Below, in pieces: positions 2,106-54,991 of a DNA stretch of 55,707 bases. A model generated the notes under the pieces. That model was not told the origin of the DNA, searched no databases, and saw only the letters and a program-made list of their open reading frames with translations. Origin of the DNA: Azolla caroliniana (lineage: Eukaryota > Plantae > Polypodiophyta); the NCBI GenBank assembly GCA_043228905.1, contig JBHGNT010000193.1, forward strand, positions 1 to 55,707, read 5' to 3'. Position 1 is the first letter of the stretch, and the number at the start of each line of letters is the position of its first letter. The translations under genes were made by a program, and so were the position numbers.

Positions 2106-2872
2106 ATGACTTCTCGACGAAACCATAAGGAAACACACGACGAAATGATAAGTAAGGAAGAATTTTTAGATGTCCTTAACCGGTTAGTAAAATTTGAAAA
2201 ATGGGCGAAAGAAATTGAAGCTGAAAAACAAAAAGATAAGGAAGAAAAAGAACTACTTTTTGCGGAAATAGCGAAACTTAAGGTAGACAATGTGAACCTC
2301 CGAAAACAAGTTAAGGACCTCGAGATATCTAGGGAAGATGGTGAAATATCTTCCCTAGAGGATATTAAGGACGAGATAAAAAAGGTTAAAGAAGAGGTTA
2401 AAAGTGATATGGAATTAGCTAAAACTGGGTGGGTTGATGTAGTAAAACGTAATATTAAAAAAGAACTAAAGGATGAAAACATTGTAAACACCACCCTCGA
2501 GGAAGAAAAAATGCGTCAAGCTCGACGCCTAAATGTACGAGTTACTGGGCTCAAGGAAGGGGCATCTCCGGATGAAGATGCACAAACATTAGGGAAAATG
2601 TTAGGGTACGAAGCCCTACCAATCACTAAAACCTGGAGGGTAGGGCGTGACACAACTAGGAAAACTCAGAATCTAGAATCGCCTTTTTTAAAAAGAGACC
2701 AATTCTTCGAGGCTTGGGCGGGGAGCCTATCTACCTCGATGAAGACTTGACCAAGATGCAAATTGAGCATCGTAAAACTTGTATGCCGCGAGTCATACAA
2801 GCTCGTAAAGAGGGGCATCGTGCTTTCTACCGGGACGGACGTGTCATAATAAATGATCGTGCCGCCAATTGA
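2106..2872 (+). pseudogene. LINE ORF1 (coiled coil + RRM-like + C-terminal domain) with a frame change near 2660-2690
   Basis: First frame gives coiled coil ...RRLNVRVTGLKE...WRVGR; the -1 frame (open 2660-2869) gives ESRIAFFKKRPILRGLGGEPIYLDEDLTKMQIEHRK...ARKEGHRAFYRDGRVIIND, the typical ORF1 IxxxEDLT C-terminus; TGA at 2870-2872. Confidence 0.85.
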
Positions 2873-2878
2873 CGGCGT

Positions 2879-5800
2879 GTGGCCCATGTGACAGATAATA
2901 AACTTAGGATCACTTTATGGAACTGTAACGGCGCACTTTGGACACATCCTGGCCGTCTAGAGGAGATTTTGAAAGTGTCTGATATACTTTTTGTAGTAGA
3001 AACACATCAAAGCCCAAATCGAGGACTGCCACGAGTTGACGGTTTTCGTTGGGAATCTGTCTTTAGACAAACCTCACGTCGACACACTACTAGAGGGTCT
3101 GGGGGGGTTGCGATATTATTTCGGAAAGAGATAAATAATAGGATAGAAATACTAAAGTCAGACCCAGAAGCCCATTTTATGTGGGTGAAAGTCCTCACTA
3201 GTAAGGATCAGGTGATATTTATCGCAATTTGTTACTTCCCCCCGAAAGGGTCCCGCTACAATATGGCTGGAGAGGCGAGTATAGTTGATGAAGGAACGCC
3301 ACATGGGCCTTCTCCATACGAACCTTTGTCGGATGACATAATCCGATATTCTTCTCAAGGGGAAGTCTTCCTGGTAGGAGATTTCAATGCGAGAACCCAG
3401 TCCCGACAATGCACAATATTTCAGATGGATAGAAACCTAGAAATGGTGAATGTCGACCCTTTAGCCTTAGGCATAACATGTACATCGAAGGATCAAGGTG
3501 CGGATGCCACAAGCTTTGGCCATCATCTGCTTGAACTTGGAAGCCGACACCAGATGATCATATATAATGGCTTAGCCAAGTGGCCGGGCTCGGAAGAGCT
3601 CACATGTTTCCCACATGGAGGAGGGGAAAGCACCGTTGATTATCTAATAGGACGCCCTGAAGCTACCCACATGGTTAGCTCCTTCCGGGTGGCCCCATGC
3701 CCCATTGGGGCAGACCATACCTTCCTATACTTTGAGCTAAAATGTGACACCTCCCACACCACCAACTCTAGTAAACCAACCCATCACACTATAATACATT
3801 TCACGCATGAGCTCGCGGACATCTACTCTCGACATGTTCAAGCCCATCTTTCCTCGTTTGATTCTTCCTTGCCTTTAGAGAACCTCACTACAGAACTCAC
3901 ACACATCCTTCACTTAGCCGCCACTAGTAGCTTCCCATACACGAAAGACTCCAATCATAGTAGAATAGGGTCTATGCCACAAAACAAGTGGTATGACGAG
4001 GATTGTAGAGAGTTGTATAGACAACTTAAAGTATCGCGACTCAGTGGTACTATCTCCTTAGTACAGGCTCGCAAAGAGATGCGCAAGATGACACGTCGTA
4101 AAAGACGAGCTTGGGAAGCATCTCAATATTGGGAACTCTACCATATGCTCATGAGTAGGGATTGTGCCCTTGCATGGAAGAGACTACGGGAACCGAGACC
4201 ACAAACACCCATCGAGGATCCCAATATTTGGCACACATATACCGAGAGACTCTACCATGTCCCGAACCAACCACCCATTCCAATGCCCTCCACACCTCGA
4301 CCTACCATGGGGACACTTTTCACGACCTCTAGGGTCACGAAGGTCATAAAAAAATTACAACATAGGAAATCCATGGACCACACAGGATTGCGAGCCGAGC
4401 ACATCATATATGCTCGAGAGTGCCTAGCTCCCCTTCTCACTCTAATCTTCAACCGCGCCCTCACCGAGGGTTTTCCACCACAATGGGCCATGAACACTGT
4501 GGCCCCTATACATAAAGGAGGGGACCCAATGGACCCAAATACATATAGGACCATTATGATAGGTCATACGCTTGCTAAACTATATGGTGCAGTAATGGAA
4601 GCGGAGCTCAGTGATTATATGGAAACATTAAGTCTTCGAGCACCTGAGCAGGCTGGCTTTAGACGAGCCTTCTCCACTATTGACCACATCTTCACACTTA
4701 GGTGCTTAATTGACCAAACAAAGGCTCGTAAGAAGAAACTATATTGTTGCTTTGTGGACTTTCGCAAAGCCTTTGATACAGTACCTAGGGAGAGGTTGTT
4801 TGATAGACTTAAGAGCTTGGAGATACCAAATGACATGATTTGGGCCATTTATGCCCTATATGAGCAAGTCTATGGGCGCGTAAGATGCCCAGGTGGCCTA
4901 TCCGATTGTTTCACTAGCACCATTGGTGTAAAACAGGGTTGCCCCCTATCACCGACTCTTTTTGGGATCTACATTGATGAGATCACTGATTTTATTGCTC
5001 GTAAGGGAGGCAAAGGAGTGGCTATTGGGGATACGCAAGTTAGTCTCTTACTCTACGCAGACGACATTGTCTTGCTCTCGGAGTCGGAACACGACCTACA
5101 AAAGCATCTTAATGCCCTAGATGACTTTTGTACACAACGAGGACTGGTAATGAATCTAGCGAAAACTAAAGTCCTTATCTTTCATACATCGCCCAGAGTT
5201 AGGAGTAAATGTCACCTCATCCTCTCTCATAAATTAGTTGAGGTGGTGGGATCTTATGTATACTTGGGAGTCACTTTTAGTGCTCGCTCAGGTAAATTCT
5301 CGATGACCCAGGCAGCCAAAGATAGGCTAACGAGAGGATATGCATCCCTCTCACTCTTAGAGAGACAATGCCACCAAGCATACTTTCAAGAGCCACGGAC
5401 TAAGGGATGGCTTTTCGACTCATTAGTGACCCCGTCCCTCATGTATGCATCAGTAGTATGGGCTCCAGGTCTACCATCTTTCATGTGGACGCAATTGGAG
5501 AGACCTTTAGTGGTGATGTTATCACGTCAACTCCGAAGCAAATCGACAGTACCACATGACATTATTAGAGCGGAGTTTAGCCTACCCCCGATGTTAGTAG
5601 AAGCACTCTTTCAAGTGGTAGCTTTTATTCATCGGATACATAGTCAACCACAAGATAGGATATCCCGTCGAGCCTTTGAGGCATCCCGATCCTTACATGT
5701 GTCTGGAGACACCAACTCTTGGTATAGCATTGTGGTGAGTTGGTTATTTGCAAATGGCATAGACATTAATAACCTACCTCCCCTTAAGTACAACCATGGG

Positions 5801-6625
5801 ACTGATCAAACTTTAATCTCTCGTGAAGATCGTAATAAAGTGATACGCCAAGAAATATGGCAAATCTACACTCGATACAAATGGATCACCCCACGAGAGC
5901 CACTCCCATCTAAAATGGTGTACTATAAGGAACACTTCTTGCACTTCTCTAAGTTAGGGTTTATTACACGACCAAGATACCTAGATACTTTCTTATCAAA
6001 TGCACTAAGGGTGGCCATTGGACGACTTAGGATATCATCTCACCAACTTGAGATTGAGAATGGTCGAGCTAATAGAGTCCCTAGAGAGGAAAGGCTATGT
6101 AGGTTATGCCACATAGAGATAGAGGATGAGTATCACTTCACATGCAAGTGCCCAACTTATGCCGAGATACGGGCGGAATACCAAGACATACTAGGACCCT
6201 CTCCCACCCTCTCCAAACTATTAGATACCCCGAGTGTAAAGAGACTAGGTAGGTATATCTTAGAGCTAAAACAACATAGGGAGGATAAATTACAAAGTGT
6301 TAATCATAACCCTTTTACTACTCATCAACATGTACCTAGTGTAATTTTTCAGGAACATGGGGAGACGATGAATGTGGATACACTTATGCCGCTCGGCCTC
6401 TCCCTTGAGGAAGCAGAAATACAAAGAGCAACCAAACGTCCTCGGATGTTGGGCTTCAACACAAGTCAATGTGGAGTAGAAAAGATTAAGAAGATAAGGG
6501 AACGTGAGCTACGTCGACTCGAAGCTATGGTTGGGGTACCTCTTACATGGGGACCACGGGCCACATCCACATCATGGCAACCCTTTGACCCCCCGCTTCT
6601 CTTCGAGAGACTTGGATGGAAATGA
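2879..6625 (+). CDS. LINE ORF2: AP endonuclease + reverse transcriptase + CCHC motif, intact (1248 aa from GTG; start uncertain)
   Basis: EN motifs WNCNG, ETH, GDFNAR, VDYL, GADH; RT motifs QAGFR, FVDFRKAFDTV, GVKQGCPLSP, YADD, YLG; CRLC...EDEYHFTCKC. Confidence 0.95.
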   Translation: MAHVTDNKLRITLWNCNGALWTHPGRLEEILKVSDILFVVETHQSPNRGLPRVDGFRWESVFRQTSRRHTTRGSGGVAILFRKEINNRIEILKSDPEAHFMWVKVLTSKDQVIFIAICYFPPKGSRYNMAGEASIVDEGTPHGPSPYEPLSDDIIRYSSQGEVFLVGDFNARTQSRQCTIFQMDRNLEMVNVDPLALGITCTSKDQGADATSFGHHLLELGSRHQMIIYNGLAKWPGSEELTCFPHGGGESTVDYLIGRPEATHMVSSFRVAPCPIGADHTFLYFELKCDTSHTTNSSKPTHHTIIHFTHELADIYSRHVQAHLSSFDSSLPLENLTTELTHILHLAATSSFPYTKDSNHSRIGSMPQNKWYDEDCRELYRQLKVSRLSGTISLVQARKEMRKMTRRKRRAWEASQYWELYHMLMSRDCALAWKRLREPRPQTPIEDPNIWHTYTERLYHVPNQPPIPMPSTPRPTMGTLFTTSRVTKVIKKLQHRKSMDHTGLRAEHIIYARECLAPLLTLIFNRALTEGFPPQWAMNTVAPIHKGGDPMDPNTYRTIMIGHTLAKLYGAVMEAELSDYMETLSLRAPEQAGFRRAFSTIDHIFTLRCLIDQTKARKKKLYCCFVDFRKAFDTVPRERLFDRLKSLEIPNDMIWAIYALYEQVYGRVRCPGGLSDCFTSTIGVKQGCPLSPTLFGIYIDEITDFIARKGGKGVAIGDTQVSLLLYADDIVLLSESEHDLQKHLNALDDFCTQRGLVMNLAKTKVLIFHTSPRVRSKCHLILSHKLVEVVGSYVYLGVTFSARSGKFSMTQAAKDRLTRGYASLSLLERQCHQAYFQEPRTKGWLFDSLVTPSLMYASVVWAPGLPSFMWTQLERPLVVMLSRQLRSKSTVPHDIIRAEFSLPPMLVEALFQVVAFIHRIHSQPQDRISRRAFEASRSLHVSGDTNSWYSIVVSWLFANGIDINNLPPLKYNHGTDQTLISREDRNKVIRQEIWQIYTRYKWITPREPLPSKMVYYKEHFLHFSKLGFITRPRYLDTFLSNALRVAIGRLRISSHQLEIENGRANRVPREERLCRLCHIEIEDEYHFTCKCPTYAEIRAEYQDILGPSPTLSKLLDTPSVKRLGRYILELKQHREDKLQSVNHNPFTTHQHVPSVIFQEHGETMNVDTLMPLGLSLEEAEIQRATKRPRMLGFNTSQCGVEKIKKIRERELRRLEAMVGVPLTWGPRATSTSWQPFDPPLLFERLGWK

Positions 6626-6827
6626 AATTAGGCCTAGTATAGAATCATTCTCATTGTAGAACATGTTTTTTTTATATAGAACATGTTTGTTGTTTTCTTA
6701 GAACTATTTAGCTTAAACTCTATTTTATCTTATTTTTATTTTTACTTTCGATGAATGGGTAAATATCCCATTTTTGTTGTACACCATTTGTCTCATGGGC
6801 CAATTTTGGCCTTAGAAGACGTTAATA

Positions 6828-6860
<33 letters not shown>

Positions 6861-7033
6861 CCTCCTCCTCACCACTGCTGCAGACACATACAGCAACAAA
6901 TCGACTCCCTCCCTCCATCGATCGATCAATATTTCTGTCCCTGTCGTGGAGCAGATCGGCAGTACTAGGCTTCTTTTTGATTCCCTCTGCTCGTCTTCGT
7001 CCTCCTTCTAATCCCCCCCCCCCTCTGCTGCGA

Positions 7034-10000: not shown

Positions 10001-13000
10001 ATATGAGGGCCTTTTAATATGGTCTATCAACTCATAAATGAGAAACTTAAGGAGTCCATCCCATGCAAATCACTCAGAAGAGGCCGGAGTCTGCACAAAA
10101 GATTTTCTAACTATTACAAGACCCTTGATTGTTAGAAATATGTGGTTCTAAGGTCATGATAAATAGGATCCTTACAATGACATCCAACCCATGGAATGAA
10201 ATGCCTAGGTACCATTAGCCACCATTTAAACGAGGCATTCGATGAAGGTATCGGTTTTAATAATGGTAAAAAACATGCCACACTAAATGGAAAGCCTATT
10301 TACAGCTTTTGTAATCTTTGCCCACATTGCATTCACAAATGAATGTTTGCACTTGTGAAGACTGTGGACCGAAAGTAGAAAATGGTGTCATGTGAGCAGA
10401 AAGTTATGACTCAAGCTTGAGCTGGAGTTGGTAGTCCTTTGTCAACCACAATGGAACTTTGGTGGCAAGATAATAAGGACATGCTCAGCTGGCTATTTAA
10501 AATTAAAACTGGGCTGACGATCAGTATGAACTGATAGTAAGTGGTTGTGGAGTCGTCAAAATTGGTTGCATAACTATCATGGTGGAAGCAACATGATTGT
10601 AACAGCTTTGGGAACTCTTTGGAATATGTTAGCAACATTTGGTCTACAAGTTGCAACAATTTGTAAACGGTTGCTTCATAAGAGATATTTTGCAGTAATC
10701 CGACACACGAATGTTCCAGATCAAATTATGATGGAGATAATACATTGCTTATTTGACACACAAGGGTATAATTTAACTGAATCCCCCTTCTTGGTTACTT
10801 CTGCAGATTAGATAGTTGAGCTTTAGCTTCTCTTAATAATAGAAAAGTTTTCTTTCTTTAATTAAGTGTCACTCTTTCATGGCTCTCCAAATCCTCTTGG
10901 GAGAGAACCCATAAGGGTATGGATAGATTGTACTACGAGTAGTATTGTCTCTCTTGCGAAGCTTCAAAAAGTCTGGAGTCATCTTCTACAGAACAATGTA
11001 TTTCATATGATATCTATATCTAACTCTTATGATTCATGTCACTCTTTCTCCAGGAGTTCAATGTAAAGGCTCATCCAGTCAGCAAGCCACATTTTGTGGG
11101 TAGATTTTTACAAGGTCTTCCATCATTATCAAGAAAGAAGAGTGGTGATCCAAAGTGGACCATGCAAAGAGAGGGTCTGCAAGGTCGCCAACTTACTGAT
11201 GCTCTTCGGGTATTTTTCTTTTTTATGTTGCTTGTACCGTTTATGTATCAATTGTATGTCAGAATAAGTTAATAATGAATGGTTTGGAATACAATATTTT
11301 CGAAGAATCATTTAGAGAAGAGGATGCAAAAAATTATATTGGCATGCACATAGTTTGACAATATTTTAGGTCATACTACAGATTTCACCTATGGTAAGGA
11401 TAGATCTTTGTTAGCAATTCAGTGAATATTTTTCTTCATGCTGCCTGGAGTAATTTTATAATCGTACATACCACACTGAATTGAACATAGGTGCTCTTTT
11501 CCATGAGATTGCTGCTTTGATTCGTTGTGTCTGTATGTCAATTGTCTATGTGCTTGGATATTTGGATATTTGATTATTCATTTCATTCTTGAAAACAGAT
11601 ATGAAAAATAAAAAAATGGATTTAAGGCCCACGCTTATTGTAACGATACCTGAATATAGGAGAAATATAAGGCAAAACCATGGCTCTTGGAAGACGACCA
11701 AGTAATTTTATAATCGTACATACCACACTGAATTGAACATAGGTGCTCTTTTCCATGAGATTGCTGCTTTGATTTGTTGTGTCTGTATGTCAATTGTCTA
11801 TGTGCTTGGATATTTGGATTTTTAATTATTCATTTCATTCTTGAAAACAGATATGAAAAATAAAAAAATGGATTTAAGGCCCACGCTTATTGTAACGATA
11901 CCTGAATATAGGAGAAATATAAGGCAAAACCATGGCTCTTGGAAGACGACCAAGGACATCAGTCATTTCAAGGGGTACTAGAGGGTGGACAACAAGCTTC
12001 TTATTACCTTTTAATGATGCATGGAAAAGACTTTCTGGCTATGCCTGCAGGTTCTTGGTATGAGTTCATCACTTTTTTAAGATCTATTTTACATAGTTGC
12101 CATCTGCATAGAAATGTTCCTCACTTACATGATCCTATATGTGAATAATATACAGAGGTATTTTAAGGAATCAAATATGGATGCATAACAGGAAAATTGA
12201 CGTCTCGTAAAAGTCCAAAATGACCCACAAGGCTGAGCATGAGAAAGAAAAAAAGTAATAGTATTGTCTACAAAAGGCTAAACTGACTTATGAGACCAGA
12301 ACGTTCTTAGAAATGTTTTAGCACACACATGATTGTATCTAGTCATAAATATGATAGATTGTCTGTAAACAAGTTAAAAGCTAAACTTGAGGTGTCCTCA
12401 GTATCCCTTATTTGTTATTTTATTTCAGAGGGTTTACATTAGTGTCGTCTATGGCTTCTATGGCAGGCTTTTTGAGATTGTAAGTGTGGGGAATAGGTTC
12501 TCAAGGTATTGCCTGTTTCCTCTATTTAAGGTGACTCCTCTAAGGTGTGTTCTATTGTTTGTTGAGGGTCAGAAGTTATGTGATGATGAATATAGGTGTT
12601 GAAAATCTACTTCCTAAATTGCAGCACTTTATTGTTAACATAGTCCATTGAATCTTAATGTTTGGGATATCTTTGATGCTTAAATTTATAGATTGTTTTT
12701 TTTCATTGTTTATTGTATCATATGATTCAAATAGGGCTTTTGATGGTTCAAAATTACACCTATTCTCAAAATTGTAACATTTTATTGTCATTGTGGTCTA
12801 CTGAACCTAATGTTTGGGATATCTTTAATGCTTAAATTTAGTGATTGTTTTTTTCCCACTGTATGTATCATATTGTAAATACACCATCCTGGTACACCAC
12901 TACACCACATATATGGTGTTGTATGACTTAACAAACTAGGTGCCCATTCACATCCATAGTTCTCCTCTGTTTCAAGCACTTGACCAGAGCGAAGCTTGGC

Positions 13001-16000
13001 AGCCCAGAGATGGTCCAACTAGAATTGACTTTCAATATGCGGAATTGCATTCAATTGTAAAGTTTAACCCTATAATGTCGCTTCATGTTAGGTACTCATA
13101 CCAATGTTAGATCCCTCTGCTCTTCCACAACTCCTTCCTTCACATTTTCCCACTACATCATACTCTTTGCCCCTTCAAATCACTTTCTCTAGGGCCTAGG
13201 ATGTCTACCTTTCCAAAACTTCAAATTTCTATTGAATAATAGGATAAATATCTATCCCAAACCAACAAAGAGAGCAATGGTAAAAATCTCCGTAGATCTG
13301 TTCAGGTGTAAATGTAAATTAACTCTTGGGGGTTTAATAACATCCATCCCAGTAATAGCAACTTTTAAGGAGTTTTTTGGTTCACATCCCTTATCACAAT
13401 TTCTAGACCAAACCAATCCACAATCAAAACTAGTTCATAGAAGGAGAACTTGCCTATTTCTAAAAGAGGAAAATCATTTGCAGGTATAATTTTCATAAAG
13501 TAGCGAATTACAAGCAACTTACACTAGAGGAAGCCGAAGAGCAAATGAAGAATCGACGTAAAACTGCAGATGGATATCAGCGTTGGCTGATGAAAGCTGC
13601 AAACACTGGTGCGGCTGCTTTCGGTGAAATTGAAAAAGGAAGTGGTGGTGGTGGTGGTAGTGGTGGAGGTGGGGGTCGTGGTGGTTTCCGCAGAAGGGCT
13701 GATGATGAAGACGAGGCTGCTTTCTCTGATAAAGGAGAGGAAGATGCTGATGATGAGGAGGATAGAAAGAATAGGCTTGGCATGAACAAAAAAGGAGGTG
13801 ATGAAGATGGAGAAGAGCCTGCTAAAAGGGATGACTTTGAATTCGATGATGAGGATGCAGAAAAAGGTATTTGGTCTTAGGGTTATTTGAGAGTATAGTT
13901 TCTATAAATTGATTATGATTGCCGTCTATATTGTTCCTGGCAATTTATTGCAGGTGATGATTGGGAACATGAAGAAACTTTTACTGATGATGATGAAGCA
14001 GTTGGTAATGACCCAGAAGAGAGAGAGGATCAAGCTCCTGAGCTTCCTGCTCCACCTGAAATCAAAGAGGTGGCCATTAATAGTATCAATATACTCCATT
14101 TTTTAATATTTGCGTTCACAATGAGGCTACACCATCTAACATCTTATTTACAATATTGTGGTTTCTACGCTCTTAACTTGTGTTCATGAAATTGGGTTAG
14201 TCCAATAATATGTGAATCTGTTCTAAAACATCATAATTTTTGCAGCTACAAAATATTTCTATTTTTCCTGAAATGAATTTTGAAGCTTCTTACATGTATA
14301 TCCATGCTATCTAACAACTGTATTTCCATGACAGGAAGAAGAAGACGCAGAAGGAGAACAGGAAGATGGGCAGCAAGATAAGGGTGGTTTAAGTGAATCA
14401 GGGTTAGAGTTAAAGAAGCTGCTTGGAAAATCTGCTGGTTTAGATGAATCAGATGAGGAGTCCTCAGATGAAGATGTAAGTAGTAATTATATGGAAGCTA
14501 TAAACAATGACAAATATATCTTTCTGACGAGCATTATTTATTATGTAGACTGTTATCAGCAAAATGCTGATTCTTTCTATGAGTATTTTTAGATTGATAT
14601 GGACAATGAGGACAACGTATCTCCTGTTCTTGCTCCGAAACGAAAAGAAGTACCTAAGGAAGAATCCATGGAAACTACACCTGTAAAAGCTGCCGCTGTA
14701 GCAGCAGGACGCACAACCCCAGCATCTAGTGTGGCACCCAAAGGCAAAAGGAAGGCTGGTGCCGATGAATCAAAATCTGGTCCACCTGCAAGTTCTAAGA
14801 AAGTCAAAGCAGAAACTACACAAGAGGTTAAATGCTATAACTCTATCAGTATAAAAACACCAAAGTATCCCTAACCTTATGGATGTTGACTAGAGTACCC
14901 CCTAAGTCTCCAAACGTACCAAACTCCTGTTTTGTAATGCACAAATTTATTACTTCAGTGAACTATTCTGCTGATTCTTAAAACTTTTCAGGATATTCTG
15001 AACTTCTGGTAAAATGTCAATTGAAGACTTCATTCTAAGGATCCAGAATTTTTTTCTATAGCAGGATGCCAAGCTTTTGAAAAAAGAATCTTCTGTATCC
15101 ACATTGTCATCAACATCAACAACCAAGGGAATTGTGTCACCTGCCAAAGGTGGAGGTGCAATGCAAACAAAAACTGGCTCCCAAGTGCTTGGAGGGGTCA
15201 CTGAAGAAGATGTAAAGGCAGTGCTGAAGCAATCTGGACCTATTAAGAGTCACGACCTGGTCAACAAGTTCAAAAGTAGATTGATGACAGCTGAGGTTAG
15301 TTTTAAGGATAAAAAAGGCCTTAATATAGTTTCGTTTTTGTATGTTGTTGATGGTTACTGTGTAAATATTGTTGGGATGCATTCAGATCAGTGTTCTATG
15401 CTTGTGCATGGCTTCCTTTAGAGCCATATAAGATTTTGTATGTGTGTGCATATTTAAGATACCATTCATATTATCTTTTTCTTCCAAAGGTGACACTAAC
15501 AAATTCTCTATTTTTAGTTAGAGAAAGAAAGAGAGAGATATATTAACATCTTTTAATAGGCCAAAATGGCCTATAAGACCAAACAAGAGATTACATCTTA
15601 TCAGAACATTTAAGATTCTCAGATCAAAAAAATTGTAATTTTTGTTTTTGAAAGGTCTCTAGTCTAGGTTGATCCAGAATGTAAAGGTCTCTGAAGCAAG
15701 GGAAGCACCTGCAATAGCGGGAGATAATAGCCTTTATCTGTCAATGACAAAGGGTGAGATCGTGGTCCATGAGGCCAGGCCCTACATGCACGACAACTTG
15801 CTCTTGCCCGATCTATTGTAGCCACTTTGTTATGTCCTGGTTGGGAACCCATTTCTGTGGCCCTTGATTTGAGTGATGGGGCTAAAGAATGTTGTGATTG
15901 TCCTTTGTTGATGAGTTTGTGTAGCTGTACTGTTGTCCTTCAACAACTTTTCCATGTGTCTCCTGTGTTCTAGCAAGAAAAGACTAAGCATCTTTTGTCC

Positions 16001-16728
16001 TCATATTCCATTACCTTCCATATTGGGTCAAAGCCTTGGTTAAAGAGGCAATGGTATCTCCCTCTTATTTCATAAAAAACGCTACAGGATAAACATAGTG
16101 ATGAAGTTCGCAGCTGCCCTATCACACTGTGCAGTGCATAGGATAGATGTATGTCCATATAAACGAGAAAGATACACTAAGGCTCCTAGAGCCCAAAATT
16201 GGCCTATGAGACAAATCATGATTACAAATATGGGTGAATTCATGTCATCCCTAAGAAAACAAGAATAAAATTTCTAGGTTTCCTAGAGCTATGATCAATA
16301 TCTGAATGCATGTGGTGGAATGATTCTGAGATGTTCTACAAGCAAGAAGGAGAGATATCTTGTTCACGGATACATGGATTTTATCATGCAACTATTTAGG
16401 ACTGCTCTTCTAAATTCTTTGGGCCTATTCCCATGAATATGTAAGGTTCATTCATGCATAAACCTTTCACATACGTATGGATTATCTCCATCTACATATT
16501 TGCTTACATTCCTTTAAACAAACCTTAGCATACAACAGCAACTGAGCTTTTCCCCAATATATGGGTGGCATATGGAATAGTTCGTTAGTTTTATGATGTA
16601 GTTATGAACAATTATGTAGTTTTGCGATGTATATGCAGGATAAAGCAGCTTTTGCTGGTGTGCTGAAGAATATATCAAGGATCCATAAAACAAATGCAGG
16701 GAACTTTATTGTACTACGGGAGAAATAA
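7034..16728 (+). CDS. RAP74: Transcription initiation factor IIF alpha subunit (RAP74), 9 exons, about 555 aa
   Basis: Exons 7034-7204, 11054-11209, 11912-12057, 13484-13866, 13954-14069, 14335-14475, 14593-14826, 15065-15295, 16639-16728, all GT-AG, total 1668 nt. Motifs [52 protein letters not shown]-terminal FIVLREK. Confidence 0.95.
8611..9240. repeat. Diverged tandem duplication of about 315 bp in TFIIF intron 1
   Basis: cactctccagaatacttgggttaaagtaacagt... recurs as cactctctagagtgctcgggttaaagcaacagt... with collinear similarity through gtagtgtctagattc. Confidence 0.8.
11450..11953. repeat. 252-bp tandem duplication spanning the intron 2/exon 3 boundary of TFIIF alpha
   Basis: Copies 11450-11701 and 11702-11953 differ at only a few positions; AG microhomology at the junction. 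Confidence 0.95.
12608..12875. repeat. Diverged tandem duplication of about 150 bp in TFIIF intron 3
   Basis: taatgtttgggatatcttt(g/a)atgcttaaattta shared; antisense ORFs both read [15 protein letters not shown]. Confidence 0.8.
13331..13447 (+). pseudogene. rpoB: Plastid rpoB fragment (NUPT) in TFIIF intron 3
   Basis: Translates to [39 protein letters not shown], matching the plastid Rpo[19 protein letters not shown] signature. Confidence 0.88.
15520..16160 (-). mobile_element. 5'-truncated LINE fragment related to the 1433-6860 element, in TFIIF intron 8
   Basis: [20 protein letters not shown]...[11 protein letters not shown] parallels LDTFLSNALRVAIGRLRISS...CPTYAEIRAEY of ORF2 (internal deletion); 3' end taggccattttggccta...gttaatatatc plus CT/CTTT tail. 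Confidence 0.85.
16161..16330 (-). mobile_element. Second LINE 3'-end fragment abutting the first
   Basis: Minus strand tttgtctcataggccaattttgggc...tatctttctc matches tttgtctcatgggccaattttggcc...tatctttc at 6787-6835; upper boundary approximate. Confidence 0.7.
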
Positions 16729-18864
16729 GCAGAGTAATAATTGTGCCTGAAATATGTATTTTCGACCCGGACCCAAATTGGAAAAGATTGCTGATCACTA
16801 CTTGTTAAACAAAGCAAGTTGATTCTCATGCTAATACATTAATGGATCAGAGTATTTGTCAGGAGTTGAAAGAATGCTAACAATAGGTAAACCTAACAGT
16901 TCGTAAATGTAATGTCGATTTGGTTTTTTCTGAGGTAAAACATCTATATCACAACTTGGTCTCCGGCATCCCAATTTTTGGAATTATACATATAACATGG
17001 CTTTTATACATATCCTTGCATTCTGTTTTGACTATTTTTTATTTGCAATTTAACTAATCACTGAATATATGGAGCGACCACACAAAATATGGATTCTCTT
17101 TGGCTTCATTGTATAAGGCAACAATATCAGGCAAGTATAATAGAAGCTTACAATATCAGGCAACAAATATTTTCATGTTGATTGTGCTACAAAAAGCCAA
17201 ATCATGCACCCCACACTTTTATTGATTGGCATAATATGTTGCCTGATGTATGAAAAGTTTTGTTCTATTCATTGAGAAATTATGATTCTGCATGAACTGA
17301 TCCAGAACCAAACCCTCATAATTTTCTTGGTATGGGAACCTTGGCGAAAACTTGCATGGTATCAAATCACTGTGTGAGTCTGTAAAAGGTATATTATGTC
17401 TGTTTTATAAATGGTTATGCAAAATATAATGTCTATCGTAGTGTCGGCTGTGTTTTATTAAGCCCAAGATGGCTTAATTTACAGAATCTTAGCTTTAAAC
17501 CTATCTCGTTTGGAAGTGATGGTACTTTGGTTAAGGGACATAATAGTTGCATCATGAAGATACCTGATTGTCAAATTCCTCTCAGTTGTCAGTGGACCTG
17601 TTGTACTGTTTGATTGATTGTTGTTGACGGATTGCTTTGAAAATAAAAGTAAGATTTTAACTGTGGGGGGTATACAGCTACTGTTCTCACCAAGGGCCCT
17701 GAAAGTGTGATATTGTGCTCTCAGTTAAAAAAGTAAATACATCACTACACTCACTGAAGGGAACGACATTAATTTCGTGATGCCAATTATTTAAAGATTG
17801 TGTTCCAATAATTAATGAATACTTAATTATTATATTTTATGGAATGCAAGGCTTGAACATGAAATATTTTATAAAATGTGGGTTTAAAGAATCTTTATTT
17901 TGTTTCGCCGCATCTCTCATATGAAGTATGGTGGCATGTTGAATTGAGTGGAAAGTGCTTTGTGAGTCTACCCACATAGGCAAACCAATAAGATACCCAT
18001 AACATTTGGGATATAATACATATAAGAACATCCCTTAGTTTGTGAGAATGTGCTATAGCTTCATACTAATTATTTTATAGCTTATTGCGAATCTAGTAAT
18101 TGTTCAAAAGGCTAGGTGTATTTTGTGGTCTTGCCCAAAATAAAATTGAATTATAGGTATTTCATCTTATGCCTACCTTGTAAGAACCATAGCATAAATT
18201 TGTCTTGAGTTTCCAATGTGCAATTGTAATGTTTCGACAATATCTCACATAATGCTCTCTTTTAGATGGTTTATTCCAACTAAAAAAACAGGACATTATT
18301 TCCCTTAACAATCAGCAAAAGAGTTCTTTACGTGATACAAAGAATCCAACCATAGACACGATGAAAAACCTACATGACACACTTTCTCAATACACAACAA
18401 TGTTCACAACATTCCATACACTTACGATGAAGAAACCATCCATGCACCGAGACGAAGAAACGATTGCAGTGCCTCGTCCATCCATCACACGCCATGTTTG
18501 ATGCGATCGTTAGTGATTCTCGGTTTGCTGGTCGTAGTGTGGTTTCTGCTACACACGCTCGTTGACAAACATGAAGCGTTTTGGAGCCATGAAGAGATAG
18601 AGCACAAATGTGTCTCTTCGTCGACAAGCATTCTTCGGCATTTGTCCTAGAAGACGGCCCTCATTGTTGAGAGTTTGGAGTAAGCCTATGGTTTGTGTGG
18701 AGTAAGAATCCCCTCCCCGCCCCCCCAAGGGGCAGTTTCTCGAATTTTCAAAAACCAAAAACCCTCCTGCGTCTATCTATCTATCTATCTATGTAATTGC
18801 GTTTCGATCGGTCGCGGGTTCGAATCCCCTCAGAACGAGTTTGCGTGCGATCCATCTTCTCGCC

Positions 18865-21648
18865 ATGGCTCCAGCAGCAGCAGCAGCAGCAGCAGCAGAA
18901 GGAGACGACGCAGAAGCAGACGGAAATGCCGACGATCATCCGCTCCCTGTACATTCCTCCTTCGATCCTCCTCTATCCCTTCTCCAGGAGCTTTCCGCAG
19001 AACGAGAAGCGCGGAAAGCTGCCGAGGCCTCCAGGTATGACCTTCAGGTTGCTTTCTCTCGCCTCAAGACCTTCGCGCTCGAAGCCGTTCGTCAGAGAGA
19101 CGACGCCGTAAGGCTCAGATGTGAGGTTGAATCGTCGAAGGAAGACTTTGAGCAGAGACTCGGTGAAGCTTTACGATGGAGGAATGAGGCATTTCAGCAG
19201 AGAGATGAGGCGTTTCAGCAGAGGAATGACGCAATTAAGGAGAGAGATGAGGCTCTCAGACAGAGAAACGAAGCTTTTGGATCATTAGAGGAGGCTTATT
19301 TGCATAAGGATATTGCGATTCATGGCAGAGATAACTCTAGATCTGATATTGAAATTGCTACGAAATTGCTTGTTGCTGGAGCGGATCTCATTACTACTAG
19401 GGTTTCTTGTGTTAAGAGGTTTCCTAATACACTTCCCAGGTCTTCTTCTTACACAGGTCTTTCTGCCATTGCTTATGGTTTCTCAAAAAGGTCTGAAGAG
19501 ATTGTGAACGAGTTGCTCAGCCAATATGATAGCGCTGTTAAAAAAAACTATGCCTTCTCAGAGCAGATGGATCGTCAACATAACCAGATTAATCTTAAGG
19601 TTTCTGAACTAGAGTCCACCATTGCGGTTTTAGAAGGAAATCTATCAAAAAAGACATTGGAAGTTGAGAAATGTCGAGAGTTAATTGCAGAAAAAGAAGA
19701 AAAAATCTTGGAGATTGAACGAATTGCATCACAGAAGATTGTTGAAGATGGAAATGAAAGCCTCAAGCTAGCAAATGCATTAAGGCTCGTGGAATCAAAG
19801 GCAGAAAATGTGAAAGTATCTAGCCATGAGTTGTCACAATTGATTTCAAAGATACATGAGATGATAGCAAGTTATGCAAACGTATTTTTCCCTGTTCATT
19901 TCCATTCAACCGCTGAAGCTTCTACGGTTGATGAGGCTGATGAGTGCATTCGTGATTCCATCGATAGATTGAATGAGATTCTGAAACTTTTCTCTAAACT
20001 AGCAGCAACTTGGGAGGAACAATTAGAGTTGAGGAAAAAGGCTTTAGAGGATACCGAAGGAACTATATCCAGACTTATAGTGGAAAAGAAGGAAATCACA
20101 AATTTCCTTGAAAGTGCGATCGCAGTGAAACAAGAGATGCTGGAAGCATTTTCCAAGCTTAGTTTGGACAGTAACCACAATTTAAATACAAAAACCAAGA
20201 ACAGGGATACAAGAAAAGAGACTATTTCAGGAACCGAGAACTCGCTCAATGAAGAGCTCAAAGTAGAGACATCTGGCAGGGTATGCAATGGTTTTATCAT
20301 AAGAAACTTTGTTATGAAATCTGTCTCAGTATTTCTAATTGCCTTTTTTTGTCTGGTTTAAACAGATAGCTGCATTAGAGGATAGTTTAAAGAAGTCGAG
20401 ACAAGAAATCTTTGAACTCCAACGTTTATTAGCTGTCTCCAGGTTTTCTATTGCTTAGATAGCAAAATAATGTTCTATCAAACCATTCTTTCTATTTACG
20501 AGTAACCTTGGATTTGACAATGGACAGGGGTGAGGTGGAATGGTTACGAATAACTTTGGAACGCCATGTAAAAGAATTATCAGTCAAGGGCGATAAAATT
20601 AAAGACTTTGAAGAGGAAAGGCTCCTTGTAGAAGAAACTGTATGGAATTGCTTGATTTTAAGAACTTGAGAAACTATTGTCTTGAAGGTTGAATCAAGAA
20701 ACTAAATTTCATTTTGTAATTATGTGGCTTTGAAGATTAATAGTTTCAAGAGAGACTTGGCAGCAGCAGAAGAAAACATATTGCTTTGGAAGCAAGCTGC
20801 TACAAAAGAAGCCGAGTCTGGAGCCCATATGCTTGAGGAGTTGGAGAAATGCCAAGAACAAGTAAGTTCAGCAGAAAGATAGTAAAATTTCAAGGATATA
20901 TTTCATTTTTAATAATTATGGACAAAATGTGGAAATGGTGTATGTTGATTTGCTGACATGATGAGATTCACTTTATCCATTGATTCAAGTTGCATAACCT
21001 AGAGTGTGCATAGAATACGCCATCTAGATAGATAGCACATAGTGCAAGTTCATGCACCAGGATAAATGAAATTTAATTTAGAGGAACATAATTCGTATTA
21101 GGCGATGAAATCTTGTACACGTGGAATAATGTAATGGGTATATTATCCTCTTCTATTTGCATGCTTATGATTCTCTCACATTCCTTGTACAGATTCTTGC
21201 CCTTTTTGTGCAGAATTATGTTCCCTTTGATTTCTTAATTTTTAAGTTTCAGAACATCCTTCCTGTGTGCTGATGATGGTAATGAAACCTTCACCAGACT
21301 GCTGTCCTCAAGGAGCAAATACGACAGCTCAACTATGCATTGGAAGATTCCAAGAGCAAGCTTCGGTCAAAAGAGGAGATGGCAACTACTGCCATAGCTG
21401 CACGTAGTGCTGCAGAACGTTCTCTTCAGATTGCGGACGACCGTGCATTAGAATTAAGGAAGAAGATTGAAGTTATGACAAGACAGTTTGAGCTCTTGGA
21501 TGGAATAGATGATGGGATTACTTCTGTAGGATGGCTGGATGCATGTTGGCCATATAAACGGCAAAGTAATAGGATTTCTCAGACAAAAGGCAATCGAAAT
21601 GGCCGGTTTGGAGCTGAAATGGAAAAGCTTTTGGAGCCATTTGTATAG
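18865..21648 (+). CDS. At3g49055/At1g24560-like coiled-coil protein, 5 exons
   Basis: Exons 18865-20280, 20366-20442, 20528-20639, 20736-20861, 21298-21648 in phase. Family-like motifs LPRSSSYTGLSAIAYG, KEEMATTAIAARSAAERSLQIAD, CWP; QRDEA heptad repeats. Confidence 0.85.
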
Positions 21649-22371: not shown

Positions 22372-24115
22372 TGTTATCCTCTGGGTACAGATAAAGAGAA
22401 GAATAGTATTAAAGATGAGTTCAACACAATCAACCCAATTGAAGCAAATTACAAGCATGGGTCTAAAAGGAAGAAATGGCATGGCATATCACCAAGCATG
22501 TTAGTTCCATGAATTCTACATAACGAATTAATGACATCTTTCTCTCTTTGATTTCATAACCAGAAGTTTGAATAGGAAAATCCTAGGGTTTTATCTCTAG
22601 TTAAAGCTTCAAGTTCTCCTTTTCTTACATGTGATGCATGCACAGCCCCGCCAATTTCCTTTTACAACAAGCTCGTTCTCAACATACTTGGACAATGGGG
22701 TATACCTTGTGTTGGTGGAAGATGTAGTAGTCAGCTTCATAACTATGGTATCAGCACGAATAGTTGTGCAAGGATTTTTTAAAGTTTTAGTTGGAATTTG
22801 CTTTCATAAACATGGTCTTAGCACAAATAGTTGCTCTATGCATCTAGCAACCTAATGAGCAAAAAGGGCATAGAGAAATTGCATGTATCACATTAGGGGT
22901 TCATTGACACGTAAGGAAACTAGTAAGTAAACAAATCGAAGCACCCACAATATTGTTGCTTCTTGTGTAACATGCAAATGATCATGATGCCATTGATCAT
23001 GGGCATCTAACCTCCATTTGTTGTAGCCATTCTTACGCCTAACCAACTGATTACAAGCAACTAAATGAGTGAGTGACCATAAGCATGTATGTTGGTACCA
23101 ATGTTTGAGATTGTTCTAGACAGCTAGAACAAATGTGTCTAGACACTAAGATCAAATTAGTAGGGGAATCTTGTCAAGTGAGAAAGGACCAATTTAGAGA
23201 ACCTTGTTGTTGACTGACTAAGTGCAAAGACCATACTAAGATGTAACATCTTTAGAAGTTTGTTCCCCAACATGGCCACCTATCATTGAGATCCAAGATC
23301 GGTGATGAAAAGACCACATCCTTGCTAATTGTATAGATCTCTCCCTTAGTTTGATTCCGAGTGTGCACTCACAATGTAGCTCCCATATCAAACAACATAT
23401 CTTTCTGACGACATCCTAATGGTTGTCATGTGACATGGTTCATTAATGGAATAAGTCAAATGTGGATCCAAAGTATTGGATATTTCCACAATCTAACTCA
23501 TCTATTATGCGCTTCTAAGTGCATGATAATGCATAATGCATGACAATTCAAGACATGGTACTCATTGTACTACGTGTGGGCATCTAGCAACAATTCATTG
23601 AAATGCACTATGTAGCAATGTTATCATCACCTAGGTTACCTCATCCTTACTCCCCATCACCAAGGCATGCACTTCAATTATGAGAAGAAAGAAAGAAGGA
23701 TTATGGGAGATGGTCTAATAAGGAGCAAACCATATCCTCTAGTTGTAGGAGGGTAAAATATGGTAATGATGTCATATGTCTTGGCTATAAGAAAAGAAAT
23801 TTCATACATACATACATACATTATTACAATTTACATATATATAAGTCTATAGATATATGATTTGCTTTAGAAAGGAAAAGAATGTCGCCTAGTTTTTTAA
23901 ACTTTTTGAGTTGGAGCTTCCCATGTATGTACTTACTATACATATTCATATTACAATGTAACTAGGGCACGTTCTTTACAGAACAAGAAGAGCATATGCC
24001 ATAACATATACACACAGAGTCATAGAAAGGAACAGAGCATTCCTCAAGGGCAGAGCAGTGCAGAGAGAGAGCGAGAGAGAGAGAAGCAGAAGCAGAAGCA
24101 GAAGCGACTGATAGT

Positions 24116-25117
24116 ATGGGTGGTGGTTTACAGGGTTTTGTGGAGGGCGGGATGGCGTCGGTTGCAGCCGGCTGTGCCACTCACCCCCTGGATCTGATTA
24201 AGGTCAGAATGCAACTCCAAGTATCACATCAGCCCTCCTTCACCGCCACCCATTCAGCCTTTGCCCTACAACCACAACCTTCTCAGCCTCTTCGTACTCC
24301 TCTCCACCCTTCTCCTTTTACACCTTACTCCTCCCACGGACCTTTCTCTATGGCCACCCGAATCATCCGCACAGAAGGTGTCCCCGCCCTCTTCTCCGGT
24401 GTCTCAGCAACCATTCTACGCCAAACCCTCTACTCTTCTACACGTTTAGGAATATATGAAACCCTCACCGCTTACACACGGACCTCCACCAACAACCCTC
24501 TTCCCCATTCTGGACAGACTATGAAATTAATGAAGAAGATAGGGGCAGGAATTATAGCTGGCGGTGTTGGTGCAGCCATAGGAAATCCTGCGGATGTGGC
24601 ATTAGTTCGAATGCAAGCCGATGGCCGGCTCCCATTTCATCTCCGACGGAACTATGCAGGAGTTGGTGATGCCCTCTTCACAATAGTTAAGCAAGAGGGG
24701 ATACACACACTGTGGAGGGGGTCCTCTCTCACCATCCAACGAGCCATGGTTGTTACTGCAGCCCAGCTCACCACCTATGATGAGGCAAAAGAACAGTTGT
24801 TAAGAAGCTCGGGGATGAAAGATGGAGTGCCTGTTCATATTGCTGCCAGTTTCTTGGCTGGCTTGGTTGCCTCAGCTGCTTCTAACCCGATTGATGTAAT
24901 CAAGACCCGAATCATGAATATGAAAAGCGAGTGTGGCCCAGGCTCACCGATAACTTGCGGTGCTTTAGATTGTGCTATTAAGACCGTGAAATTGGAGGGT
25001 TTCATGTCTCTTTATAAGGGCTTCACCCCCACCGTCATGAGGCAGGGTCCATACACTGTGGTGCTTTTTGTCACTCTAGAGCAGATTAGGAAGTTGTTTG
25101 GGCAGCCCTCATCTTGA
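24116..25117 (+). CDS. DIC: Mitochondrial dicarboxylate carrier (DIC / UCP4-6 type), intronless, 333 aa
   Basis: Three carrier signatures PLDLIKVRMQ, PADVALVRMQ, PIDVIKTRIM; FVEGG...THP, RQTLYS, ADGRLP...RRNY, RQGP motifs. Confidence 0.93.
   Translation: MGGGLQGFVEGGMASVAAGCATHPLDLIKVRMQLQVSHQPSFTATHSAFALQPQPSQPLRTPLHPSPFTPYSSHGPFSMATRIIRTEGVPALFSGVSATILRQTLYSSTRLGIYETLTAYTRTSTNNPLPHSGQTMKLMKKIGAGIIAGGVGAAIGNPADVALVRMQADGRLPFHLRRNYAGVGDALFTIVKQEGIHTLWRGSSLTIQRAMVVTAAQLTTYDEAKEQLLRSSGMKDGVPVHIAASFLAGLVASAASNPIDVIKTRIMNMKSECGPGSPITCGALDCAIKTVKLEGFMSLYKGFTPTVMRQGPYTVVLFVTLEQIRKLFGQPSS

Positions 25118-48140: not shown

Positions 48141-54991
<6,851 letters not shown>

Follow-up and report, generated by a model that had tools for sequence, protein, structure and literature searches.

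How does a long interspersed nuclear element (LINE) make its enzyme when the second open reading frame (ORF2) continues in the frame of the first (ORF1), with a single stop codon in between? The question arises from a LINE at positions 2106-6869 (plus strand) of contig JBHGNT010000193.1 from the fern Azolla caroliniana, whose 55,707 nt constitute the window analyzed here. The element consists of ORF1, ORF2, a 3' untranslated region (UTR) and a repeat tail. We consider it probable that programmed readthrough of the UGA yields ORF2 as an ORF1-ORF2 fusion, with likely stimulation from the CGG that follows and from a predicted long-range RNA helix. Related elements and loci are given below as L-numbers and related proteins as P-numbers.

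The ORF1-ORF2 junction in Azolla and related fern loci

The C-terminus of ORF1 (2106-2872, plus strand; coiled coil, RNA recognition motif and C-terminal domain), ...YRDGRVIINDRAAN, stops at TGA 2870-2872, and the same frame goes on with CGG CGT GTG GCC CAT and stays open for 1250 codons to 6625 (ORF2, 2873-6625), as a first-pass annotation made from the sequence alone had described. Its account of the start codons was also borne out for the window copy: the first in-frame ATG after the stop lies at 3179 (codon 103 counted from 2873), past the endonuclease motifs WNCNG and ETH, and the ATGs at 2853 and 2886 lie in another frame. The TGA-CGG at 2870-2875 is largely kept in the fern loci and has the form of a type II readthrough context, in which CGG (or CUA) comes after a UGA that is in frame with a downstream gene. 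The same annotation had placed ORF1 and ORF2 in one frame. This is correct for intact relatives (L001-L005 and L023, with 272-337 open codons up to the TGA) and for the last 70 ORF1 codons of the window copy (2660-2869), but the remainder of ORF1 in the window is not continuous with the TGA. The frame from ATG 2106 closes at 2748-2750, because a 25-nt deletion after 2662, relative to L001, shifts it. As its ORF1 is frameshifted, the window copy could not produce the fusion from its own ORF1 start.

A metagenome scan recovered 33 related fern loci, 22 of which reach the endonuclease start and 20 of which hold the junction. Conservation of the stop and its context across genomic copies, a check that the annotation had called for, was high, with TGA in 20/20 and CGG in 17/20 junction-holding loci, although these are close kin and not independent. 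Other features of the same loci weigh against readthrough. The ATC at 2909-2911 of the window, four residues before the Asn of WNCNG, is ATG in 21 of 22 related loci; an early in-frame AUG before WNCNG is thus the majority state and the AUG-less window the minority one, a finding that the annotation itself had named as evidence against its proposal. A second ATG lies 6 nt past the stop in 8 of 20 loci (codon 2879 is ATG in 8, GTG in 9 and another codon in 3). In contigs over 2846-2965 from four sequencing runs, base 2911 was G in 78-96% of contig depth, and no variant was listed at 2% or more at 2870-2875 or 2879. Contigs identical to the AUG-less window junction reached depths of 374 and 618 in two runs (depth being distinct from copy number), so this variant is not a one-off.

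Such codons are the starting points of the main rival model, termination-reinitiation, in which ribosomes would resume at the ATG or GTG 6 nt past the UGA or at ATG 2909 and synthesize a separate ORF2 protein (ORF2p). Reinitiation would need nothing more than these ATGs, at 2909 or 6 nt past the stop, and with GTG included a candidate codon is present at 2879 in 17/20. Gene calls for P0004 and P0006, from more distant fern relatives, begin MAH or MAY at this same place, though callers write M for GTG too. There is also precedent, as reviews describe termination-reinitiation for ORF2 of human L1 and silkworm SART1 (PMC5972666, PMC10275272, PMC3894237). Like the fern family, these are LINEs with a bicistronic RNA; the modelled fern ORF1 protein (ORF1p) has the L1 fold, and in SART1 a structure past the ORF1 stop is required. 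They differ in the spacing, 63 nt in L1 and a UAAUG overlap in SART1, and in making ORF2p separately. In one version of the model, the ribosome would, after termination, be kept in place or positioned by the long-range helix, much as a downstream structure acts in SART1, and the in-frame layout would be the relic of a readthrough ancestor.

Two details of these codons speak against a role as starts. The start-like look of codon 2879 is explained by the predicted helix, which includes its second and third bases; only the unpaired first base varies. Codon 2909 is Ile in the window variant and in P0006, as expected of an internal hydrophobic residue. Gene calls for P0005, P0007 and P0129 start past the first endonuclease motif, which also disfavors reinitiation as far as protein records alone can be read. 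These three and P0012, all from more distant fern-type families, share such late starts, a hint that no usable ATG lies upstream; gene callers also misplace starts, as for P0152 and P0155. Because an in-frame AUG precedes WNCNG in most fern copies, reinitiation retains a place as an explanation for the fern family, albeit one that we judge unlikely. Conservation at synonymous sites does not single out the junction block, since 28 of 449 nine-codon windows match it in their freedom from such change. On the fern data alone, the case for readthrough is open.

Single in-frame stops among distant relatives

The strong evidence for readthrough comes from distant relatives, not from the fern loci. 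From a collection of prokaryote genomes we retrieved 14 contigs with eukaryotic LINEs that had been binned into metagenome-assembled genomes. Two of them showed a junction, and in both, ORF1 is in frame across one TAG and the endonuclease motif is preceded by no Met. An endonuclease profile was built from 11 regions, further genomes were searched and 100 regions were fetched; 88 of the 98 matches in genome G188 were taken, some of them on one contig. The resulting non-redundant set (n = 127) comprised 3 fern elements, 68 others scoring at least 59 bits on the profile and 56 scoring below. Most of the distant elements come from one contaminated assembly, which makes the host range narrow, and the hosts appear to be marine invertebrates. 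Many intact eukaryotic LINE contigs were present in the prokaryote-labelled genomes G188 (9 Mb), G003, G005 and G214, which amounts to heavy host contamination.

We called a layout in frame when at least 100 open in-frame codons preceded one stop (104-696 were observed). It was directly seen in 60 of 65 evaluable high-scoring elements; 5 did not have it and 3 of the 68 end at a contig edge. Without the 10 elements used to train the profile, 58 elements remain and 52/57 are in frame, as opposed to 3/51 low-scoring LINEs (48 not in frame, 5 of 56 reaching an edge; Fisher p 5e-21 for 52/57 vs 3/51, which overstates independence since families share ancestry). The junction stop is TAG in 60/60 distant in-frame elements. 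ORF2 stops of the same elements are TAA in 21, TGA in 8 and TAG in 4, and ORF1 stops of outside elements TAA in 19, TAG in 5 and TGA in 2. G occupies +4 in 52/60 and A occupies -1 in 40/60, matching the type III viral context UAG-G, whereas the fern junction is the type II context UGA-CGG; adenosines 5' of the stop are described as favoring readthrough (PMC3542737). No Met precedes the endonuclease motif in 52/60; 28 of these 52 also lack CTG, GTG, ACG and TTG, and 9 lack any of nine near-cognate codons. A start codon near the ORF1 stop is a feature of most fern copies but not of the window variant or of these 52 distant elements. The motif Asn is the 7th codon past the stop in 10 elements, and open linkers of up to 550 codons occur elsewhere. 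Of 63 upstream frames (the 60 plus 3 from outside the clade), 21 matched a fern ORF1 profile at E<0.001 and 38 at E<0.05.

Readthrough is favored over reinitiation because the latter gives no reason to choose a particular stop codon, as TAG is chosen in 60/60, and it does not account for the leaky type II context of the ferns either. Within the clade, a subgroup (L141, L144, P0015, P0017 and P0018) does carry its own ORF2 ATG, out of frame with ORF1. This subgroup is a natural switch of mechanism and, as such, a point for reinitiation and against readthrough throughout the clade. One of two reverse transcriptase trees sets four of its members (L141, L144, P0015 and P0018) beside the fern lineage, with weak support (0.583).

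Both trees nest the fern family among in-frame distant elements (support 0.955 and 0.942/0.821), although they disagree on its sister group. They hold unlabelled elements and plant L1-like outgroups, and 66-85 of 153-156 sequences, including most outside elements, were dropped at domain extraction. Because of this nesting, it is probable that the clade started from an in-frame single stop and that stop type and context changed together in the fern line. The clade itself is probably RTE-X. Two of 13 RTE-X-labelled snippets from a bivalve library (supplement of PMC10294476) show the junction; by eye, each has an in-frame TAG-G that precedes WNCNG or WNIQG, and ATG is lacking. According to passages of the same study (Martelossi et al. 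2023), RTE-X elements resemble the fern family in an ORF2 with apurinic-type endonuclease (APE) and reverse transcriptase, a Cys motif at the C-terminus, a genuine ORF1 and a tail of microsatellite repeats; the fern family differs in its TGA-CGG, usually with a downstream ATG, and those passages do not mention readthrough. An esterase, described in ORF1 of some RTE-X members and not presented as a requirement of the clade in the part of PMC3905857 consulted, was sought in 42 ORF1s and found in none.

Could the stop be removed at the RNA level, by splicing at a TAG|G acceptor or by A-to-I editing to Trp, or be bypassed by an internal promoter yielding an ORF2-only RNA? TAG-G does look like a 3' splice site, and ADAR prefers UAG as its triplet. 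No pyrimidine tract lies upstream, though (mean pyrimidine fraction 0.43), and the fern TGA is no acceptor. As for editing, ADAR is not known from plants, and in local folds pairing of the stop's A is below average (0.38 vs 0.54). Either way, the altered RNA would presumably be copied into new insertions and the stop erased. An internal promoter finds a parallel in Tca2, whose junction has a minor promoter (PMC2194720), but it would not supply the Met missing in 52/60. We regard this whole group of explanations as very improbable.

At least as improbable, and largely refuted, is the notion that the layout is neutral or an artefact, be it the premature stop of a dead copy, a reassigned stop codon or chance complementarity. 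The damage to ORF1 in the window copy and the unexceptional synonymous conservation of the fern junction would fit such a view. However, ORF1 ends at the same column, an RDGR-like motif plus 8 residues, in 61/68 near-length relatives as judged by eye. Reassignment is countered by ORF2s of more than 1000 codons with no internal TAG, some of which end in TAG, and chance complementarity by the strength of the pairing described below (~5.6 standard deviations (SD) below the mean of 1804 probes).

Two further results weigh against readthrough. A search among longer proteins for a relative with ORF1 and ORF2 fused gave 3 matches, all of them chimeric gene models, which is weak evidence. In Tca2, the in-frame gag-UGA-pol junction alone gave no readthrough in yeast (PMC2194720); if a distant element were needed, this null would also be expected of a short reporter.

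L098/L140 was considered as a natural ORF1-ORF2 fusion and rejected, as a TAG lies 550 codons before the motif. A stop-N6-GGCC motif, present in the first 10/10 junctions, proved not to be general in the larger set. Very long linkers from stop to motif occur in L140 (550 codons), L172 (310), L175 (194) and L154 (137), the last two without Met, and possibly add extra domains to the fusion. A 2A-like DxExNPGP motif is found in the ORF1 frame of 3/63 in-frame elements (L035:373-1458, L039:1-2073 and L052:2-1390), possibly amounting to two recoding events in one element. Finally, L205, L211 and L228, which the profile score places outside the clade, likewise show an in-frame ORF1 ending in one TAG, and each has a Met before the motif; these layouts possibly originated independently.

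Predicted pairing of the junction with the 3' end

Type II stimulators are helices that begin about 8 nt after the stop (PMC3542737), and the first-pass annotation had proposed one in a local stem joining 2881-2890 to 2943-2954. That stem did not survive scrutiny: its pairs have probability 0 in a fold of 2870-2990, the pair 2886:2947 is an A-C mismatch in 14/15 loci and no pair shows a compensatory change. Nor did we find any other local hairpin after the fern stop, with z near 0 in 90- and 130-nt folds, or across 61 elements (60 distant plus the window), where mean z ranged from -0.20 to +0.06 over eight offsets. The type II local stem-loop is thus absent from these folds.

Instead, the 25 bases past the stop find their best partner in the whole element in the 3' UTR. 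After a 7-nt spacer (2873-2879), whose last base also opens the GTG/ATG codon 2879-2881, a proximal arm at 2880-2896 can pair with a distal arm at 6786-6802 over 16 bp with one mismatch (9 bp, mismatch, 7 bp), and two pairs of the seven-pair half include G-U or A-U ends. The predicted helix begins at the 8th base after the stop and its arms lie 3.9 kb apart. The complementarity is directly seen in both directions: in the reverse search, the terminal 60 nt paired best with the probe starting at 2873 (-31.2 kcal/mol; 1804 probes, mean -11.1, SD 3.6), about 5.6 SD below the mean, the next-best probe reaching -22.3 kcal/mol. L004 gave the same reciprocal best pairing among 1646 probes. The distal arm overlaps a predicted 3'-terminal hairpin (6790-6820, -13.8 kcal/mol), so the two folds would be mutually exclusive. 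The proposal of virus-like readthrough draws support from the clade-wide layout, which the annotation could not see, and from a predicted stimulator from the 8th nt; its arguments from a local stem and from the lack of an early AUG in the family fail.

Some aspects of the pairing count against its role as a stimulator. The 60-nt tail window was chosen after the match had been seen. Both ends are readable in only two close fern subfamilies (~84% identical), and no compensatory change was found in the helix between them. L004 and L017 share an identical core of the distal arm but differ in the UTR upstream of it. The fern 3' end may be conserved just as a recognition site of the reverse transcriptase. 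Scans of viral contigs for junction DNA of the distant fern subfamilies (P0002 and P0004-P0012) returned nothing.

Among distant elements the signal is partial. Both ends were available for 34 elements. Among these, probes that start 0-9 nt past the stop had a perfect match of at least 8 nt to the element's own tail in 10-11 cases, compared with 1.8-3.0 expected from other elements' tails and 0-6 at 15 other probe positions. Duplex energies favored own over foreign tails (p 0.002, 35 elements). With a stricter helix score, 11/34 ranked within the highest 10% of the cross-element control (binomial p 3e-4), and 7/28 did so with one subclade removed (p 0.018). Against this, the overall rank test of the helix score was not significant (p 0.15 and 0.62), and pairing was detected in only about a third of the distant elements, with different complementary pairs, and went undetected in the rest. 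The pairing is thus clear for the fern family and for roughly one in three of the distant elements.

We infer the following mechanism, in which the contribution of CGG and the switch at the 3' end are as conditional as readthrough itself. Most ribosomes would terminate at the UGA and release ORF1p, and a few would insert an amino acid there when the long-range helix has formed, giving the fusion. The helix would be formed by full-length RNA alone, with an intact 3' end, and therefore a truncated RNA would make no enzyme. If the 3' end refolded into its own hairpin, the RNA would switch from translation to service as a template for reverse transcription. Since the stimulator appears to be long-range and to involve the 3' UTR, a short reporter of 2850-2990, as the annotation had suggested, could give a false negative.

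The closest functional parallel is found in the Tombusviridae, where long-range readthrough over ~3.5 kb was shown experimentally for carnation Italian ringspot virus (Cimino et al. 2011, PMC3234231). In the virus and in the predicted design of the LINE alike, the polymerase lies past an in-frame stop, an element next to the stop pairs close to the RNA's 3' end (~3.5 kb away, 3.9 kb in the fern) and the distal element shares bases with a 3' structure that could not form at the same time. The virus differs in using UAG-GGR with a large local stem-loop, whereas the LINE has UGA-CGG with no significant local stem, and the mechanism is demonstrated in the virus and predicted in the LINE. UGA-CGG and a helix ~8 nt past the stop are shared with type II viruses (tobra-, peclu- and furoviruses, alphaviruses and coltivirus segment 9; PMC3542737, PMC13517186), but their stimulator is a local extended stem-loop, while the partner strand of the fern LINE lies in the 3' UTR. 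Among LINEs, ORF1-ORF2 readthrough was suggested from consensus sequences for non-LTR Group 3 of Paramecium tetraurelia (Guerin et al. 2017, PMC5405496); this is a separate ciliate clade, and the passages available describe neither a stimulator or long-range pairing nor an experimental test.

More broadly, and tentatively, a LINE clade of animals and ferns may make a Gag-Pol-like fusion by readthrough gated by end-to-end pairing of its RNA. Its 3' terminus would toggle between stimulating readthrough and starting reverse transcription, tying the enzyme to full-length RNA in cis, and the plant lineage would have swapped UAG-G for the UGA-CGG of plant viruses while keeping the design. This wider scheme is possible, and we hold it with some doubt.

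Organization of the element, its surroundings and implications

The element has the characteristics of an APE-type LINE. Its ORF2 contains an endonuclease (amino acids 16-277; PF03372, E 7e-11), a reverse transcriptase (amino acids 546-801; PF00078, E 4e-33) and a C-terminal CCHC-like motif near 6098-6151. The 3' tail (6831-6869) is made of tetranucleotide (CTTT) and then trinucleotide repeats, and the family is multi-copy, with 152-1629 contigs matched per sequencing run. The nearest named protein relatives come from Adiantum, Ceratopteris and Pteridium. ORF1 had no Pfam match, and Pfam and the protein atlas gave it no name. The predicted model of ORF1 from the intact relative L004 (mean predicted local distance difference test score 80) matches the human LINE-1 ORF1p trimer (Foldseek E 1e-6), and on this modelled fold it qualifies as the nucleic-acid-binding protein of an upstream ORF1.

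Upstream of ORF1, the region 1437-1990 is GC-rich with internal repeats and is probably the 5' UTR and promoter of the element. An 80-base stretch flanks the element on both sides (1296-1374 and 6909-6988, 79% identical), with a microsatellite of similar type in front of each copy; possible readings are a preferred target or the 5' end of an adjacent element. A clean target-site duplication was not established around the element. On the minus strand, 12242-12296, 15522-15582 and 16166-16234 are short decayed copies of its 3'-terminal 55-70 bases (73-83% identical), either heavily 5'-truncated insertions or tails of a short interspersed nuclear element borrowing the LINE end. Elsewhere in the window we found a decayed fragment of the ORF2 C-terminus of a more distant LINE (50849-51107, 41-52% identical), an uninterrupted mitochondrial-carrier reading frame (24026-25117; PF00153, E 7e-62) and a 551-codon coiled-coil frame (18706-20361).

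A literature search, with Repbase Reports and subscription journals outside its coverage, found no study of LINE ORF1-ORF2 readthrough and none of LINE long-range pairing. New here are a viral recoding design in a plant LINE, the shift to another stop signal and a helix that is unusually clean and testable: the 16-bp fern pairing is short enough to be broken and restored in a plant reporter. The translation of LINE ORF2 has been called interesting and important in a review (PMC3894237). The worked-out LINE cases are reinitiation, and a large readthrough clade would add a third route; if true, LINEs would parallel gammaretroviruses and tombusviruses. ORF2 of such families would be mis-annotated wherever a gene caller starts at the first ATG. 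A stimulator at the 3' end of the RNA would, moreover, explain how enzyme synthesis favors full-length RNA.

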